64,000 bases of DNA from contig JBFGNS010000004.1 in assembly GCA_041574955.1 (NCBI GenBank), positions 6,707 through 70,706 on the forward strand. Direction: 5' to 3'. Numbering within the stretch: the stretch's first letter is position 1; every line of letters begins with the position of its first letter. A model generated the notes under the pieces. The model had not been told where the DNA came from, made no database searches, and was given only the letters and a program-made list of their open reading frames with translations. This document shows, in pieces, positions 2,923-62,721 of this stretch. A program made the translations under genes and the position numbers. Source of the stretch: Thermoanaerobaculia bacterium. GTDB lineage: Bacteria; Acidobacteriota; Thermoanaerobaculia; Multivoradales; JAHEKO01.

Positions 2923-3057
2923 TCAGGCGGAGAGGCTCTTGCGACCCTTGCGGCGCCGGCGCTTGAGGATTGCCCGCCCGGCGCGCGTTCGCATGCGCGA
3001 CCGAAAGCCATGGTTCTTCTTGCGCCGCCGGTTGTTGGGCTGAAAGGTGCGTTTCAT
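2923..3057 (-). CDS. rpmH: 50S ribosomal protein L34
   Basis: Hand translation of the minus strand: [44 protein letters not shown] plus stop (44 aa). Too short for the ORF track. This is the canonical L34 sequence and position. Confidence 0.95.
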
Positions 3058-3124: not shown

Positions 3125-3154
3125 AATCTACCGGGTTCCGCGACGGCGGGTCAA
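3125..3154 (-). promoter_or_regulatory. Candidate sigma-70 promoter for rpmH-rnpA-yidD-yidC
   Basis: Minus strand reads TTGACC (3154-3149), an 18-nt spacer, then TAGATT (3130-3125), about 70 nt upstream of the rpmH ATG. Confidence 0.4.
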
Positions 3155-9213: not shown

Positions 9214-9389
9214 CCTGGCCTACTCGCCGCCGCTCGGCGAGCGGCCGCAGGGGCCTGAAGATCCGCGACTTGCCGCCCGCGGGCACCGCAGGCGTACTCC
9301 AGACTACGTCGAGGATGCCCGGACAAGCGGAAGTCGCGCAGCTTCGGGTGCATCCGGACGCGCGACGGCGGCGCGGTGAGAAGGTCGGG

Positions 9390-10463
9390 CTAGCGGTCTT
9401 CGTCCGGCCGCGCGCGGCGGGCGGCGGCGAGCGCCTTGCGCGCCAGCCCGGCGAGCGGCATCTCGCTCAGCGCGGTGTCCCCGAACCAGCCCGCCTCGGC
9501 CGACTCGGCCACCCCTCCGGCGGCGCGCAGCTCGGCCCGCCACAGCTCGACCTCGAGCCGGCGGTTGGTGATGGCGTGGCGCAGGGTGGCGAGCGGCGCG
9601 GCCAGCCGCCAGCGGCCGCCGTAGCGCGCGGCCAGCGCGCGCTCGGCCTCGGCCGGCTCGCCGGCCGCCACCCACGGCAGCTCCCAGAGCCCGGCCAGCA
9701 GCTGCTCCGTCGGTGGCCGGCGGACCAGCAGCAGCCGGCCGCCCTGCCGCGCCAAGGCCGCGATCCGCCGCTCGCGCCGGGGCTCCGGCGACCGCCGCCG
9801 GGACGGTAGCCGCTGCTCCAGCCCGGCGGCAAGCGCGCCGCAGCCCGCGGCCAGCGGACAGCTCGGGCAGCGCGGACGGCGCGGCAGACAGACGGTCGCA
9901 CCGAGCTCCATGAGCGCCTGGTTGACGTCGCCCGGGCGTCCTTCCGCGCCGCCCACCAGCTCGGCGGCGTAGGTCTCGATCCGGCGGGCCACCGCCGCCC
10001 GGTGCACCTCGCGCCGCTCACCCAGCAGGCGGGTGACGACCCGCACGACGTTGCCGTCGACCGCCGGCACCGCCTCGCCGAAGGCGATGCTGGCCACCGC
10101 CGCGGCGGTGTAGCGCCCCACGCCGGGCAGGCGAAGCCACTCGGCGGCGGTGTGCGGCCAGCCGGCGCCGGCGGCCACCAGCGTCCGGGCGGCGGCGTGC
10201 AGCCGGCGGGCGCGCTGGTAGTAGCCGAGCCCCGACCAGGCGGCGAGCACCTGCTCCTCGTCGGCCGCCGCCAGGCTCTCGACGTCCGGAAAGCGCTCCA
10301 GGAAGCGCTGGTAGTAGGGGCCCGCGGTCTCGGCGCGCGTCTGCTGCAGCATCACCTCCGAAACCCACACCGCGTAGGGATCGGCGCTCCGCCGCCAGGG
10401 CAGCTGGCGCGCGTTGGCGTCGTACCAGGCGAGCAGCCGCGCGGCAGCGGCGGTGCGGCTCAA
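9390..10463 (-). CDS. mutY: A/G-specific adenine DNA glycosylase MutY (start placed at TTG 10463; the 673-aa ORF in the track is an upstream read-through)
   Basis: LLAWYDANARQLPWRRSADPYAVWVSEVMLQQTRAETAGPYYQRFLERFP (HhH-GPD), GLGYYQRARRLH, the 4Fe-4S loop CLPRRPRCPSCPLAAGC and a C-terminal NUDIX-like domain. A 357-aa product fits the family. Confidence 0.85.
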   Translation of the reverse strand: MSRTAAAARLLAWYDANARQLPWRRSADPYAVWVSEVMLQQTRAETAGPYYQRFLERFPDVESLAAADEEQVLAAWSGLGYYQRARRLHAAARTLVAAGAGWPHTAAEWLRLPGVGRYTAAAVASIAFGEAVPAVDGNVVRVVTRLLGERREVHRAAVARRIETYAAELVGGAEGRPGDVNQALMELGATVCLPRRPRCPSCPLAAGCGALAAGLEQRLPSRRRSPEPRRERRIAALARQGGRLLLVRRPPTEQLLAGLWELPWVAAGEPAEAERALAARYGGRWRLAAPLATLRHAITNRRLEVELWRAELRAAGGVAESAEAGWFGDTALSEMPLAGLARKALAAARRARPDEDR

Positions 10464-10832
10464 GGGCTGGGCGCGGGCCAGATTGGCCGGCGGGCCGACG
10501 AAACGGCACCGCCCCGACCGCGAGTGGCGGTCGGGGCGGTGTCGTTCGAGAGAAGAATGGAAAAGGGGGGAGGATTCGTTGGGTGGTCTGTTGACTATAC
10601 CCCTCGGCTCGGTAGATCGATCGAGGGGAACTGGGTGATGGGGTTTGGAGAAGTGCCGGACGGCTCGCGCCGCCCGAAGTTGGAAAGAATGTGTTGAGGG
10701 ACCTCCCCGTGAGTCCTTGTCCTTGCTGGCATTTCTTCTTGCAAGCCAGGTGCCAACACCCTCGTCCGCACCCCCGCGCAGCATTGCCGGCGGCCGGTTG
10801 CGGCCCCGTGCCGCATCTGGGAGAGTGGGCCG

Positions 10833-21648: not shown

Positions 21649-21706
21649 GCGGGTGGTCTGCTGCCTGCGCGGCGCCGGGGTGGGCGCGCGACGCGTCTCA
21701 TGTGCT

Positions 21707-21899
21707 GGCCCGGCCGGCTGGGAGTCGCGGGGGAGGGGGTCCCAGGGTACCGGCTCGCGCCGGTCGGGTTTTCTCGGGGGTGCGCTCGCCCGCACTCGGC
21801 TGGCGCGCGGCATCGGCGTCGGACTCCCGCCGGCGTTGCGCCGCGCTGGCCGAGAGCTACCCTGGAACCCCCTCCCCCGCAACTCCGACGCCGGCCTCC
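21707..21899 (+). repeat. Family-1 structured intergenic repeat, copy A (193 nt)
   Basis: Alignable end to end with 45597-45804, 47361-47553 and 62303-62495. Long self-complementary arms (gcgggggagggggtcccagggta / taccctggaaccccctcccccgc) enclose a conserved core (ccggctcgcgc...gcactcggctggcgcgcgg...ggcgtcggactcc...gcgctggccgagagc). Confidence 0.85.
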
Positions 21900-21938
21900 T
21901 TGGGAAGATGGCTCGGGGTCGTGGGGCCGCGTGCAGCG

Positions 21939-22600: not shown

Positions 22601-22625
22601 TTCGCTGCGCTCAGGATGACAGCGA
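22601..22625. repeat. Short REP-like palindromic unit (complement reads GTCATCCTGAGCGCAGCGAA)
   Basis: ttcgctgcgctcaggatgacagcga, with tcgct/agcga able to pair. I recall the GTCATCCTGAGCG-type motif as a dispersed intergenic repeat in several GC-rich phyla. There is only one copy in this window. Confidence 0.4.
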
Positions 22626-22635
22626 GCTTCCGGCC

Positions 22636-22690
22636 GCGGCGTCGGACTCCAACCCCGAGCACTACCGCAGGGACCACCCTTCGAAGTGAC
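22636..22690 (+). repeat. Degenerate 3'-half remnant of the family-1 repeat
   Basis: gcggcgtcggactccaacccc...gagcactaccgcagggaccacccttcgaagtgac aligns with the 3' half of family 1 (ggcgtcggactccaccc...gagagctaccctgggaccctgtccccctcgcctctgac). It has an internal deletion and no 5' arm. Confidence 0.4.
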
Positions 22691-22704
22691 AGCAACGCCC
22701 GGGG

Positions 22705-22858
22705 CCATCGCCGGAGGCTGCGCCCGCCGGTTGGAGCCCGGGGCGGAGCGACATCACCCTCGCCTTTGGAGCGCAGCTCCGGGCTCCGGCCGGCCAGCGC
22801 AGCCGGCCCGAAGCTCCGGAGCCCCCAAGCCCCCAAGCCCCCAAGCCCTCGGGCCCTC
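22705..22858 (+). repeat. Family-2 hairpin repeat, copy a, with three tandem GCCCCCAA octamers
   Basis: Aligns with 62580-62721. The 16-bp stem gccggttggagcccgg (22726-22741) / ccgggctccggccggc (22779-22794) closes a 37-nt loop containing GGAGCGACATCACCCTCG. GCCCCCAA x3 lies at 22821-22844. Confidence 0.8.
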
Positions 22859-22909
22859 TACCCCCTCTGCTACACTCACCCGCCCGACCCAAGGAGGCGA
22901 TCACCCCCA

Positions 22910-45541: not shown

Positions 45542-45596
45542 CGAAAGCGAGCCGGCTGGCTGGTTGCTCGTCGAGCCGGCGTACCGCCCTGGTGCT

Positions 45597-45804
45597 GGCC
45601 CGGCCGGCTTGGAGTCGGGGGGAGAGGGTCGGCCCAATAGGGACTACATCTCCGGCTCGCGCCAGTCGGACTCTGCTTAGGGGGTGCGCTCGCCCGCACT
45701 CGGCTGGCGCGCGGGCGTCGGCGTCTGACTCCCATCGGCGTTGCGTTGCGCTGGCCGAGAGCTACCTGTCGACCCCTCTCCCCTCGACTCTGACGCCGAC
45801 ACCC
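45597..45804 (+). repeat. Family-1 structured intergenic repeat, copy B (208 nt, most diverged)
   Basis: Same core as the other copies (ccggctcgcgcc...gcgctcgcccgcactcggctggcgcgcgg...gcgctggccgagagc). The stem sequence is different but still complementary (gtcggggggagagggtcg / cgacccctctcccctcgac). About 15 extra nt sit at the tip of the 5' arm. Confidence 0.8.
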
Positions 45805-45873
45805 GGTGGATCCGCTCAACAGCTGGCAGCTCTGGCCAAGAGGGCTGTCGGGGCGAGTGGGATCCGGATCGAC

Positions 45874-47078: not shown

Positions 47079-47220
47079 GGGAGTGCCGGTCATTCTAGGT
47101 CCGCGGTATCGACGGAGCGAGACAGGGATCCAAGGGGCGCTTCAACACAAAGCGAACGTTCGTTCTTTTGCGTTGATTGTCGGTGCGGTTTCACCCTTCG
47201 GAGGGACACCGGAGCCTGGG

Positions 47221-47286
47221 CCACCCCCGGGAAGGTGCGCCTGCCGGGGGCCCGGGGCGGAGCGACCTCCATCGCCCCTTTTGGAC
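47221..47286 (+). repeat. Family-2 repeat, truncated copy c1 (5' half only)
   Basis: ccacccccgggaaggtgcgcctgccgggggcccggggcggagcgacctccatcgccccttttggac aligns with the first half of 62580-62650. The 3' stem arm is missing and the sequence runs into a family-1 fragment. Confidence 0.6.
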
Positions 47287-47301
47287 ACCGGGATGCGTGC
47301 T

Positions 47302-47343
47302 GGCCCGGCCGGCTCGGAGTCGACGGGGACAAGGTCCCAGGTA
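47302..47343 (+). repeat. Extra, isolated 5' arm of the family-1 repeat
   Basis: ggcccggccggctcggagtcgacggggacaaggtcccaggta duplicates the first ~42 nt of family 1 with 3 substitutions and one missing g, 18 nt upstream of full copy C. Confidence 0.7.
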
Positions 47344-47360
47344 GCGGCGGGTCGGCGGTG

Positions 47361-47553
47361 GGCCCGGCCGGCTCGGAGTCGAGGGGGACAGGGTCCCAGG
47401 GTACCGGCTCGCGCGCAGTCGGACTTTCGAGCGGGGCGCTCGCCTGCACTCGGCTGGCGCGCGGCATCGGCGTCGGACTCCACCCGGCGTTGCGCTGCGC
47501 TGGCCGAGAGCTACCCTGGGACCCTGTCCCCCTCGCCTCTGACGCCGGCCTCC
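47361..47553 (+). repeat. Family-1 structured intergenic repeat, copy C (193 nt)
   Basis: Near-identical to copy D (62303-62495), with a perfect 24-bp stem cgagggggacagggtcccagggta / taccctgggaccctgtccccctcg. Confidence 0.85.
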
Positions 47554-47567
47554 GCGGGGCGAGGGGG

Positions 47568-47607
47568 GCCTCGAGGGCTCGGGGGCTCGAGGGCTCGAGG
47601 CTTGAGG
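47568..47607. repeat. Tandem octamer array (5 units, GGCTCGAG-like)
   Basis: gcctcgag ggctcggg ggctcgag ggctcgag gcttgagg. Its reverse complement resembles the GCCCCCAA / GCCCTTGA units that follow family-2 copies a and d. Confidence 0.7.
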
Positions 47608-47626
47608 CCTGGCGCTGCGTAAGCCG

Positions 47627-47682
47627 GCGGGGGCCCGGTCGGAGCGACATCACCCTCGTGTGGCCAAGCGACCGGGCCCCGC
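47627..47682 (+). repeat. Family-2 hairpin repeat, copy c2
   Basis: Stem gcgggggcccggtc (47627-47640) / gaccgggccccgc (47670-47682) closes a loop containing GGAGCGACATCACCCTCG. Confidence 0.7.
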
Positions 47683-47856
47683 GCCCAACGCGCTGGCCGG
47701 GGGCTCGGGGGGCTGCTGCTCGTCCTCGACGGGAGACAGGGCCGGGTACCGGAGGGTGCAGGGCGGTCGGGGCACTCGCGCCGAAAGCCCTTTGGCTACG
47801 GGGGACTGTGGCGCTGGCACGGATCCTGAAGCCCGGGGCCGGCGAGGAGGCCCGAG

Positions 47857-48570
47857 ATGATGCGACGGAATATGACTTTGGCACTGGCCGGCGGCGCGCT
47901 GGCGCTGGGGCTCATGGTGGCCGCGCCGGCCGAGGCGGGGCACGCCGGCTGGTCGTTCGGCGCCGGCTTCCGGGTCGGCGGCTTTGATTTCCAGATCGGC
48001 TTCCGCGACGGCGGGCGGTACGGTCCGGGCCCCTACTTCCACACCCGCGGCGCCCTGAGCTACCCTGGCCACCGCTGCGGCAGCTACTGCCTGCGCAGCG
48101 GCCGCGACTTCTACCACCACTACACCTGCCCGCTGGTCGGCCTCCACTTCAGCCGCTTCGGATACTCGTCGGGCTACTACCTCGATGCGTACCCGCCGCC
48201 GGGTTTCTTCTTCCGCGGTTACTACGGCGGCTACCACGACCGCCACTACCGGCACCGTGCGCCCAGCCGCCGGCACGGCTACTATCTCCACCGGGACCGC
48301 CACCGCGACCGCTGGTGGGACCACCGCGGCGACCGCTGGGACCGTCGTGACCAGCGGCGCGACCGCCGCCGCGACTGGCGGCGGGACCGGCGGCACGACC
48401 GGCGCGACGAACGGCGTGACTGGCGGCGCGACCGGCGGGATGACCGCCGCGACTGGCGCGAGGACCGGCGTCACGATCGGCGCCGTCACCGCCTGCGCGA
48501 TCGCGACGACCGCCGCCGCGACGACGACCGGCCGCGGGCCCGCCGCCGCGGCCGCCGGGGTCCCGGCTAG
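47857..48570 (+). CDS. Secreted hypothetical protein with Arg/Asp/Trp/His-rich repeat tail
   Basis: 237 aa. GAGGAGG lies 6 nt upstream of the ATG. Clear signal peptide MMRRNMTLALAGGALALGLMVAAPAEA. A Gly/Tyr/Phe-rich middle region with three Cys, then about 90 aa of DRRxDWRRDRR-type repeats. Confidence 0.6.
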   Translation: MMRRNMTLALAGGALALGLMVAAPAEAGHAGWSFGAGFRVGGFDFQIGFRDGGRYGPGPYFHTRGALSYPGHRCGSYCLRSGRDFYHHYTCPLVGLHFSRFGYSSGYYLDAYPPPGFFFRGYYGGYHDRHYRHRAPSRRHGYYLHRDRHRDRWWDHRGDRWDRRDQRRDRRRDWRRDRRHDRRDERRDWRRDRRDDRRDWREDRRHDRRRHRLRDRDDRRRDDDRPRARRRGRRGPG

Positions 48571-62291: not shown

Positions 62292-62302
62292 CGGGATGCA
62301 TG

Positions 62303-62495
62303 GGCCCGGCCGGCTCGGAGTCGAGGGGGACAGGGTCCCAGGGTACCGGCTCGCGCGCGGTCGGACTTTCGGGCGGGGCGCTCGCCTGCACTCGGCTGGC
62401 GCGCGGCATGGGCGTCGGACTCCACCCGGCGTTGCGCTGCGCTGGCCGAGAGCTACCCTGGGACCCTGTCCCCCTCGCCTCTGACGCCGGCCTCC
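62303..62495 (+). repeat. Family-1 structured intergenic repeat, copy D (193 nt)
   Basis: Perfect 24-bp stem 62322-62345 / 62454-62477, extended with one mismatch and one bulge to ggccggc / gccggcc. 108-nt conserved core. Confidence 0.85.
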
Positions 62496-62579
62496 GGTGA
62501 GAGCAGCGGGAATCGGCCGCCGGCTCCGCGCATCACCGGTCGCCAGTCAGCGCTCCTCGAAGCGAGAACAGCGCGGTAG

Positions 62580-62721
62580 CCATCCCCGGAGGGTGTGCCC
62601 GCCGGCTCGGGGCCCGGGGCGGAGCGACATCACCCTCGCCTTTGGAGCGTAGCGCCGGGCCCCGAGCCGGCCGCGCGCCCGGCCCGAAGCCGCAAACCCA
62701 GCCCCCAAGCCCTTGAGCCCC
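62580..62721 (+). repeat. Family-2 hairpin repeat, copy d
   Basis: Perfect 17-bp stem gccggctcggggcccgg (62601-62617) / ccgggccccgagccggc (62655-62671), with a 37-nt loop containing GGAGCGACATCACCCTCG. Followed by GCCCCCAA/GCCCTTGA units (62701-62721). Confidence 0.8.

Follow-up and report, generated by a model that had tools for sequence, protein, structure and literature searches.

Introduction

Repeated palindromic elements have been well studied in Proteobacteria; to our knowledge, they are essentially undescribed in the Acidobacteriota and in their class Thermoanaerobaculia, which is known almost only from MAGs. Among bacterial MITEs and long palindromic repeats, Correia/NEMIS, ERIC, RUP and the Deinococcus SRE are familiar examples. 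Elements of the IS200/IS605 type have hairpin ends that are recognised and target the lagging-strand template, and an intrinsic terminator comprises a GC-rich stem and a loop of 3–8 nt followed by a U-tract. REP repeats reach high copy numbers and usually flank a cognate gene for a RAYT (a Y1 transposase). REP sequences are imperfect palindromes of 20–40 bp that carry, at one of their ends, an unpaired tag reading GTAG or CGTC, and a REPIN consists of two such units in inverted order (PMC3733652).

The stretch of DNA analysed in this study (64 kb, referred to below as the window) is the chromosomal origin region, dnaA to gyrA, of a Thermoanaerobaculia (Acidobacteriota) MAG with a GC content of 72–76%. 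It carries yidC, rnpA, two tRNA-Ser genes, the SRP RNA, dnaX, dnaA, dnaN, recF, gyrB and gyrA, and its further genes include those for a CPBP protease and an M20 dipeptidase. Among named sequences, those that match the M20 dipeptidase best come from Thermoanaerobaculia MAGs. A preliminary description of this DNA had reported a repeated hairpin, here called Family-2, in which an 18-nt loop motif is conserved on stems that differ from copy to copy. Family-2 was found to be a hairpin-forming element spanning ~100–170 bases. As it stands, it is one more palindromic repeat of intergenic DNA, specific to one lineage of a phylum that has received little study, and nothing points to a function for the host.

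Materials and methods

The Family-2 copies compared are a, c1, c2 and d in the window and two from public contigs, designated L009 and L057. Copies a, d, L057 and L009 served as the basis of a covariance model (R1). Two sibling MAGs (GCA_041609615.1 and GCA_041608635.1), reached via members of 90%-identity clusters, are 99.2–99.7% identical to the window in every stretch shared, and short Logan contigs from one sample series were also compared. For the comparison of spacers, relatives were used that share the gene order dnaA ... gyrA, CPBP, M20, CYTH.

Results

The 18-mer GGAGCGACATCACCCTCG occurs exactly three times in the window, at 22745-22762 (copy a), 47641-47658 (copy c2) and 62621-62638 (copy d), each time on the + strand. 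By chance 0.17 occurrences would be expected, none of 100 dinucleotide shuffles reached three, and no further sites were found in the window at up to three mismatches. Each exact occurrence sits within the loop of a long GC-rich hairpin. The count agrees with the preliminary description, which had listed three exact copies together with a degenerate and truncated one at 47221-47286; the latter (copy c1) is indeed decayed and does not fold.

Copies a and d are 82% identical along ~165 nt (22681-22848 and 62557-62720 on the + strand; BLAST), and the Family-2 unit of this length is made up of an upstream module, an 8-bp outer stem, the hairpin, a post-hairpin segment (GGCC.GCGC..CCGG.CCGAAGC) and an array of the octamer AGCCCCCA. 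The conserved loop of these two copies is 31 nt long (GGAGCGACATCACCCTCGCCTTTGGAGCG[C/T]A) rather than the 18 nt originally proposed, and holds two GGAGCG boxes 23 nt apart. Copy a scores 106.4 bits with R1 for 22706-22810. Its extended hairpin (22716-22804) has an MFE of -88.1 kcal/mol (z = -4.0) and consists of an 8-bp outer stem (22716-22723/22797-22804) and an inner stem (22726-22744/22776-22794) around the 31-nt loop (22745-22775), which the 18-mer opens. The hairpin itself had been recognised earlier, with an inner stem of 16 bp and two U-G pairs; folding gives 19 bp and three G-U pairs. At its 3' end (22820-22848), the octamer is repeated 3.6 times in tandem (TRF score 58, 100% matches).

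Copy d scores 100.8 bits with R1 for 62581-62686, and its extended hairpin was placed at 62591-62680, with the loop at 62621-62651, by folding and by alignment to the model. The outer stem again has 8 bp, two of them U-G (62591-62598/62673-62680). In the inner stem, with arms of 20 nt (62601-62620/62652-62671), the 17 perfect pairs reported for this copy were recovered and are followed by one G-G mismatch and two further pairs. A partial counterpart of the octamer array lies after the hairpin at 62700-62717.

Copy c2 (47603-47699, + strand; R1 32.9 bits, E = 3e-4) is a deletion derivative in which the second half of the loop and the 3' arm that originally followed it are gone. The remaining 5' arm pairs instead with a downstream segment (47627-47640/47670-47682), giving 13 bp with one bulged G and not the 14 bp first described, and in the L057 copy the homologue of this substitute arm is the post-hairpin segment. 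An octamer repeat, which reads CTCGAGGG on the + strand, lies upstream of c2 at 47565-47601; it is on the minus strand, whereas the octamer tails of a and d point the other way. Copy c1 (47192-47286, + strand) is 75–78% identical to a and d by BLAST and scores 15.3 bits with R1 (E = 0.6). It retains the upstream module, the 5' arm and a decayed loop with the altered motif GGAGCGACCTCCATCGCC at 47259, forms no hairpin (z = +0.57) and stops after TTTTGGA, where sequence of a second repeat, Family-1, begins.

Relatives of the element are few. An exact scan for the 18-mer over 596 Gb of representative genomes gave 56 matches, of which 55 are isolated chance occurrences and one is homologous (L009), and a scan of metagenomes for CCGGN{2,3} followed by the 18-mer gave a single match (L057); viral contigs yielded no match to the same element. 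The L009 copy opens a 4.6-kb contig that belongs to a Thermoanaerobaculia MAG. GCA_041609615.1 holds both the dipeptidase of the window and the M28 peptidase of L009, each at an identity of at least 90%, which places L009 and the window in one species-level lineage. Four copies are present in the 64-kb window and five loci are known in the lineage. With filters off, R1 found no further copies in the window and, in ~140 kb of relatives and siblings, none beyond the orthologous copies. A BLAST search of a plasmid collection with Family-1 and Family-2 gave no match, and nothing was found in the literature on the motif strings or on repeats of Thermoanaerobaculia. A search of Rfam 15, proposed earlier as a check, matched no described RNA family: there was no hit at the gathering score, and at E <= 10 two regions gave only noise from microRNA models.

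In an alignment of five sequences only (a, d, c2, L009 and L057), fitted to the structure by the model, 95.1% of the stem cells are paired and six stem pairs have changed on both sides, two of them as register shifts in a GGGCCC run. None of 500 shuffles reached the observed covariation score, and pairing falls to ~50% when the partner is shifted by one column. Clear compensatory changes from G-C to A-U are seen in copy a and in L009, a G-C pair at the top of the c2 stem has become U-A, and the outer stems of a and d differ by one swap of C-G for G-C. Matched one-base indels also occur on both sides of the arms. Hairpins of 17–27 bp (13 bp in c2) are maintained by compensatory substitutions together with paired indels. 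Judged on these few sequences, the covariation of the stem is real, and the statistics that had been suggested as a check bear out the claim that the stems differ yet stay complementary.

Among copies a, d, L057 and L009 the pairwise difference is 4.8% in the loop against 23–31% in the arms and flanks, about five-fold lower, and 3 of 31 loop columns are variable compared with 32 of 75 elsewhere (p = 0.001); both contrasts are overstated in this set, since L009 and L057 were found by an exact match to the 18-mer. Copies a and d, the only pair free of this ascertainment, differ at 1 of 31 positions in the loop and at 8 of 36 in the arms (Fisher p = 0.03). Within the population, the c2 18-mer carries a T to G change in all 10 of the other (Logan) contigs and one contig of the d locus has a SNP in the loop; no in-situ polymorphism was found in the arms of copies a, c2 and d among the siblings and Logan contigs. 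The loop does vary, then, within the population. As had been noted for copy a, G-U pairs are confined to the + strand, with five G-U and no A-C pairs. The + strand as the folding strand is suggestive and not firm, since all five wobbles come from copies a and d and the loop is able to form a 9-bp hairpin of its own on the minus strand.

All Family-2 copies are intergenic. Their neighbours are genes for the CPBP protease and M20 dipeptidase, an Fpg glycosylase and an Arg-Asp-rich protein, an acyl-CoA oxidase and a YHS-domain protein, and an M28 peptidase. These are unrelated to one another, and the association with particular gene classes that had been envisaged was not found among the flanking genes. 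Copies a, d and L009 follow the ends of genes and c1 and c2 lie between divergent genes; in terms of gene orientation, two copies stand after co-oriented genes, two between divergent genes and one antisense just past a convergent gene, while another precedes a gene of its own orientation. Neither a transposase nor a Y1_Tnp/RAYT domain was detected among ~40 of the ~43 predicted genes of the window. The four Family-2 copies and the four full copies of Family-1 all have + orientation and lie on the right-hand side of dnaA, where the cumulative GC skew is rising; this bias concerns one 50-kb stretch of one replichore and also matches the direction of most genes.

The element has entered several intergenic sites that are unrelated to one another and, in one case, the extreme 3' end of a gene. 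The spacer between the CPBP and M20 genes, which holds copy a, is 362 nt long here compared with 188 and 82 nt in relatives whose dipeptidases are 82% and 80% identical, and copy a is absent in the relatives L058 and L059. Only the last ~45 nt of the spacer are shared with relatives, and they include an extended -10-like TGCTAnACT and a ribosome-binding site; judging by these bases, copy a would lie upstream of the likely dipeptidase promoter and outside the leader. In the gyrA-CPBP spacer, 291 nt here against 29–52 nt in relatives, the surplus is a Family-1 copy. The L009 copy begins ~25 nt past the stop codon of the M28 peptidase gene, and the peptidase ends ~14 codons before the C-terminus common to five relatives, exactly at the element. 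Its closest relative (L091) has no Family-2 in the 389-nt spacer 3' of the M28 gene and carries a canonical hairpin and T-run terminator there. Family-2 is missing, then, from two orthologous loci in relatives of 77–82% identity. An origin of the peptidase's acidic C-terminus from the L009 copy can be set aside, as the relatives carry the same acidic tail.

Among the closest genomes the copies are stably inherited. Copy a is in place with an identical hairpin in the siblings L065 and L066 (99.2–99.3% identical); the 362-nt spacer shows nine differences among the three genomes, all outside the hairpin and five of them, at 22651-22702, within or just beyond a Family-1-like remnant. Copy c1 is identical in the sibling MAG contig L068, and c2 is found in situ in 10 Logan contigs. 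No consistent direct repeat that could represent a target-site duplication was recognised at the boundaries of similarity between a and d, where sharp ends were not identified. The spacers of the relatives, for their part, are too diverged for empty sites to be defined.

Family-1 is a foldback of 215 nt. The copy directly upstream of d lies at 62298-62515 (+ strand), and the consensus fold has 75 pairs, eight of them compensatory; the other full copies, also on the + strand, are at 21702-21919, 45592-45808 and 47356-47573, with a partial one at 47297-47355. Directly upstream of copy a, a stretch that by its sequence reads like the 3' part of Family-1 (GGCGTCGGACTCC...) is present at 22637-22700 (+ strand). 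Throughout the window, Family-2 copies follow either Family-1 or one of its remnants. The module TCGCTGCGCTCAGGATGAC (22602-22620, + strand) is the single exact match in the window, and two related copies flank the Family-2 element of L057. Family-1, Family-2, the TCGCTGCGCTCAGGATGAC box and the octamer arrays form a BIME-like mosaic.

The two families have in common the motif GCCCG(G)CCGG(C)TNGGRG at the base of the 5' arm, and their 3' arms share the complementary C(T/C)CCGA.GCCGGCC. The 5' motif gave seven matches, all on the + strand and only at Family-1 and Family-2, against 0.03 expected for a pattern that was derived post hoc, after the sequences had been viewed. Because of this shared motif, the Family-2 stem may be a shared terminal inverted repeat and not a free scaffold. 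The families nevertheless appear to have separate histories, as the spacers between them are unrelated and the Family-1 copies at 47356 and 62298 are 98% identical compared with ~78% for c2 and d. When run against the interior of all four Family-1 copies, R1 scored 11–16 bits, which is at noise level, and there is only a hint, from this model, that the Family-2 hairpin may be homologous to the inner hairpin of Family-1.

Both repeats coincide with breaks in assemblies. Family-1 lies at the start of contig L065 and at the ends of L069 and L070; L009 starts inside Family-2, the L057 copy is ~70 nt from the end of its contig, and at the d locus each of the ten Logan contigs begins within the 18-mer, at ~62624. 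The breaks at Family-2 suggest that it is a multi-copy element. In the sibling contig L068, Family-1 is joined to an msrA locus and not to c2, which may represent a rearrangement or a chimeric assembly.

Discussion

Like REP, REPIN and BIME sequences, Family-2 is an extragenic, GC-rich imperfect palindrome that mostly follows coding regions, forms mosaics with other short repeats and keeps its stems by compensatory change (PMC3733652). It is likewise lineage-specific, inherited vertically once inserted and probably transcribed as an RNA hairpin (PMC3733652). Several features set it apart. Family-2 is a single hairpin of 70–90 nt with arms of 17–20 nt and a 31-nt loop, and its arms are not separate palindromes. 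No GTAG or CGTC stands beside the stem in copies a, c2, L009 and L057, the sole GTAG being 12 nt upstream of the outer stem of copy d; no RAYT gene was seen in the window, and the copy number is possibly low. In REP sequences, stem and tag are conserved and the loop is free, whereas Family-2 has the opposite pattern. The REP/RAYT relationship suggested in the preliminary description thus fits in kind, but not in the size of the unit or in the tag.

Bacterial MITEs offer a second parallel. They too are non-coding, 100–250 nt long, have inverted-repeat arms whose transcripts form a long hairpin, and insert in intergenic DNA and at the 3' ends of genes, with presence or absence differing between related genomes. 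Family-2 is small, has no conserved ORF and is present or absent between related genomes in the same manner, and the terminal motifs common to Family-1 and Family-2 recall MITEs derived from one insertion sequence. In contrast to MITEs, Family-2 showed no recognisable target-site duplication, and an insertion sequence with matching ends that could be its parent is not known; the arms also vary in their mid-portion, whereas the terminal inverted repeats of MITEs are normally their most conserved part. A third likeness is to IS200/IS605 ends and PATEs, in which the hairpin is the recognised feature and a single-strand logic applies (PMC6006769). The single orientation of the eight copies would place the hairpin-forming strand on the lagging-strand template, as in IS200/IS605 elements; unlike these, the window shows no TnpA, TnpB or other HUH gene.

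Taken together, Family-2 is probably a small, non-coding and non-autonomous palindromic insertion element (REP/BIME-, ERIC- or MITE-like), one module of a mosaic of intergenic repeats that is specific to its lineage, in one uncultured Thermoanaerobaculia species. Its copies would spread in trans, either through a hairpin-forming single strand or through the shared terminal inverted repeats and a transposase encoded elsewhere; the mobilising machinery is postulated throughout, since no transposase or RAYT gene lies within the 64-kb window. The hairpin and its 31-nt interior may be kept because only intact copies propagate, that is, by selection on the element and not for a service to neighbouring genes. 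Once inserted, a copy would probably be co-transcribed and act at most as a generic stable RNA hairpin, and the one orientation on the right replichore would fit co-transcription and targeting of the lagging-strand template alike. Some observations sit less easily with an insertion element. So little divergence in the loop would not be expected of a purely selfish repeat in decay, except where propagation depends on the loop, G-U pairs on the + strand only would also fit a functional RNA, and the 18-mer is very rare in public data.

The conserved interior and the preserved pairing are also what would be expected if a + strand transcript showed the 31-nt loop to a protein or RNA partner on a stem serving as scaffold, as a portable regulatory or stability module, and the + orientation of all window copies, with stems in a and d that are complete only in that sense and carry five G-U and no A-C pairs, agrees with such a functional hairpin. 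We consider it rather unlikely, because the element is absent at the orthologous sites of relatives and its neighbours are unrelated, with inconsistent positions relative to genes and one antisense copy; together with the lack of a gene-class association, this absence points away from a dedicated riboregulator and towards a palindromic repeat that is mobile. Moreover, the identity of the loop in L009 and L057 is partly an artefact of ascertainment, in-situ polymorphisms strike the loop twice and the arms never, c2 is retained despite having lost half of its loop, and the 9-bp hairpin of the minus-strand loop blurs the choice of strand. Rfam families and riboswitches would in addition be represented by curated models and conserved at orthologous sites, and Family-2 is neither. 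Stem covariation could also have arisen with no selection on pairing, had a core been inserted into pre-existing palindromes with Family-1-type termini or had quasi-palindromes been corrected by template switching. The outer arms do match the Family-1 motif, the variable position of Family-2 (CT-N-GG) varies among Family-1 copies too, nesting exists in that Family-1 begins directly inside the decayed loop of c1, and paired indels between copies are typical of templated events. Such an origin nonetheless seems improbable: correction templated by the other arm would tend to erase the three G-U pairs of copy a, the innermost pairs of c2, which would belong to the inserted core, have co-changed (GGC/GCC to GTC/GAC), and the window holds no empty palindrome of the proposed target type.

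A duplicated factor-independent terminator, or a hairpin that stabilises the 3' ends of mRNAs, is very unlikely, despite the high stability of the stems, the position of a and d downstream of co-oriented genes and the short distance from a stop codon to the L009 copy. No copy is followed by a T-run, a terminator scan was empty at the copies, and the loop has 31 nt, a conserved interior that a terminator does not need; c1 and c2 stand between divergent genes, one copy is antisense to its neighbour, and after the same M28 gene L091 has the canonical hairpin and T-run. The earlier statement that this is not a plain terminator is therefore upheld. Even less can be said for a short protein-coding gene on the minus strand (GAGGGTGATG..., translated as MSLRPGP...), a reading that can practically be dismissed. 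An SD-like GAGG followed by an ATG inside the conserved loop, and five of the six frames being open across the element, would speak for it; the copy sequences themselves contradict it, as the frame after MSLRPG is wholly different between copies and in L009 stops after seven codons. Nor was a homologous protein found: the 75-aa ORF across copy a, in one + frame, had no match among 1.84 billion representative proteins, and a word-indexed search with a concatenate of the peptides from five frames (spurious ORFs) gave one word candidate and no scored match. Finally, Family-2 and Family-1 might together be the substrate of an undescribed hairpin-recognising mobilisation or binding system of Acidobacteriota, with its specificity in the 31-nt loop and the GGAGCG boxes, and thus be either REP-like with inverted logic or a portable RNA module bound by protein; this seems improbable.

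With the insertion element as the preferred reading, the mildly unusual trait of Family-2 would be an interior that appears more conserved than its arms, as judged from few and partly biased sequences. If the loop is recognised rather than the stem, the element would be an unusual variant on the REP/MITE theme. For the lineage itself, the repeats, and Family-1 especially, fragment and possibly mis-join MAG assemblies. They also give rise to long spurious ORFs in a genome of 75% GC, and one insertion has apparently shortened a peptidase gene.

The Family-1 repeat and a motif common to both families

The intergenic hairpin repeat Family-2 shares its mosaic with a second foldback repeat, Family-1, which is 215 nt long and occurs at 21702-21919, 45592-45808, 47356-47573 and 62298-62515, with a partial copy at 47297-47355 beside the full copy at 47356-47573. 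All copies in the window lie on the + strand, and two of them share 98% identity. The Family-1 consensus folds into a structure of 75 pairs with a conserved, branched interior; compensatory change is seen at 8 of the pairs. Compared with other Thermoanaerobaculia, Family-1 is an insertion between gyrA and the CPBP gene.

At the base of the 5' arm, both families carry GCCCG(G)CCGG(C)TNGGRG. Seven matches were found in the window (21708, 22722, 45598, 47303, 47362, 62304 and 62597), all on the + strand, against 0.03 expected by simulation, the pattern having been defined post hoc. This common motif suggests that Family-1 and Family-2 have terminal inverted repeats in common or a single origin.

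Differences between sibling MAGs at repeat sites

Contigs of the sibling MAGs start or end in Family-1. When positions 1-400 of the GCA_041608635.1 contig (L068) are compared with window 47297-47750, the 59 nt that partially duplicate the 5' arm of Family-1 in the window are missing from this sibling, and Family-1 is followed by an msrA gene where the window has Family-2 copy c2 and the gene for the Arg-rich protein. Either the repeat was the site of a true rearrangement, or the assembly is chimeric. In the GCA_041609615.1 contig (L067, 4240-4350), the M28 peptidase gene departs from the allele of the public contig L009 about 20 codons before that allele's end, at ...LLPRK|VKPVKAD*. It continues into a tandem array of the 23-nt unit GGAAGTCGGTGAAGGCCGACTAG, four or more copies long, which extends to the end of the contig and replaces both the Family-2 copy and the ancestral acidic tail.

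Boxes and simple repeats near Family-2

A box, TCGCTGCGCTCAGGATGAC (reverse strand GTCATCCTGAGCGCAGCGA), lies at window 22602-22620, and another of this type at about 130-155 of L068; in L057, a public contig, the Family-2 copy is flanked by two related boxes in direct orientation (about 3125-3150 and 2925-2950, minus strand). The box also gives rise to spurious peptides, HPERSEGS for example. Similar boxes are common in intergenic DNA of soil bacteria. Octamer tandem repeats, AGCCCCCA, were found 3' of Family-2 copies a (22820-22848) and d (62700-62717), and the reverse-complement type, CTCGAGGG, 5' of copy c2 (47565-47601). Family-2 in L009 adjoins, on the same side, a tract coding for poly-Glu whose antisense strand is C-rich. 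Family-2 may prefer C-rich simple repeats, or these associations may be coincidental.

Other features of the window

Downstream of Family-2 copy a, CTCTGCTA(G/C)ACT (22868-22882) is conserved in three genomes, including two relatives lacking Family-2 at this site (L058, 9958-9972; L059, 9955-9969). In each of the three the M20 dipeptidase start follows about 30 nt further downstream, and the sequence is likely to be an extended -10 promoter element.

No ORF in the 1.5-kb stretch at 9214-10712, upstream of the S49 peptidase gene and dnaA, passed the codon-bias filter. Since the cumulative GC skew of the window reaches its minimum at around 4-10 kb, this stretch is possibly oriC.

The N-terminus of the 237-aa product of the Arg-rich protein gene (47857-48570) is signal-like, and its tail is a long repeat rich in Arg, Asp and His (RRDxRRD...). 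Comparison of the protein with Pfam gave no match, and its 90%-identity cluster contains five members, all from this lineage. Dozens of Logan contigs carry identical or near-identical copies.
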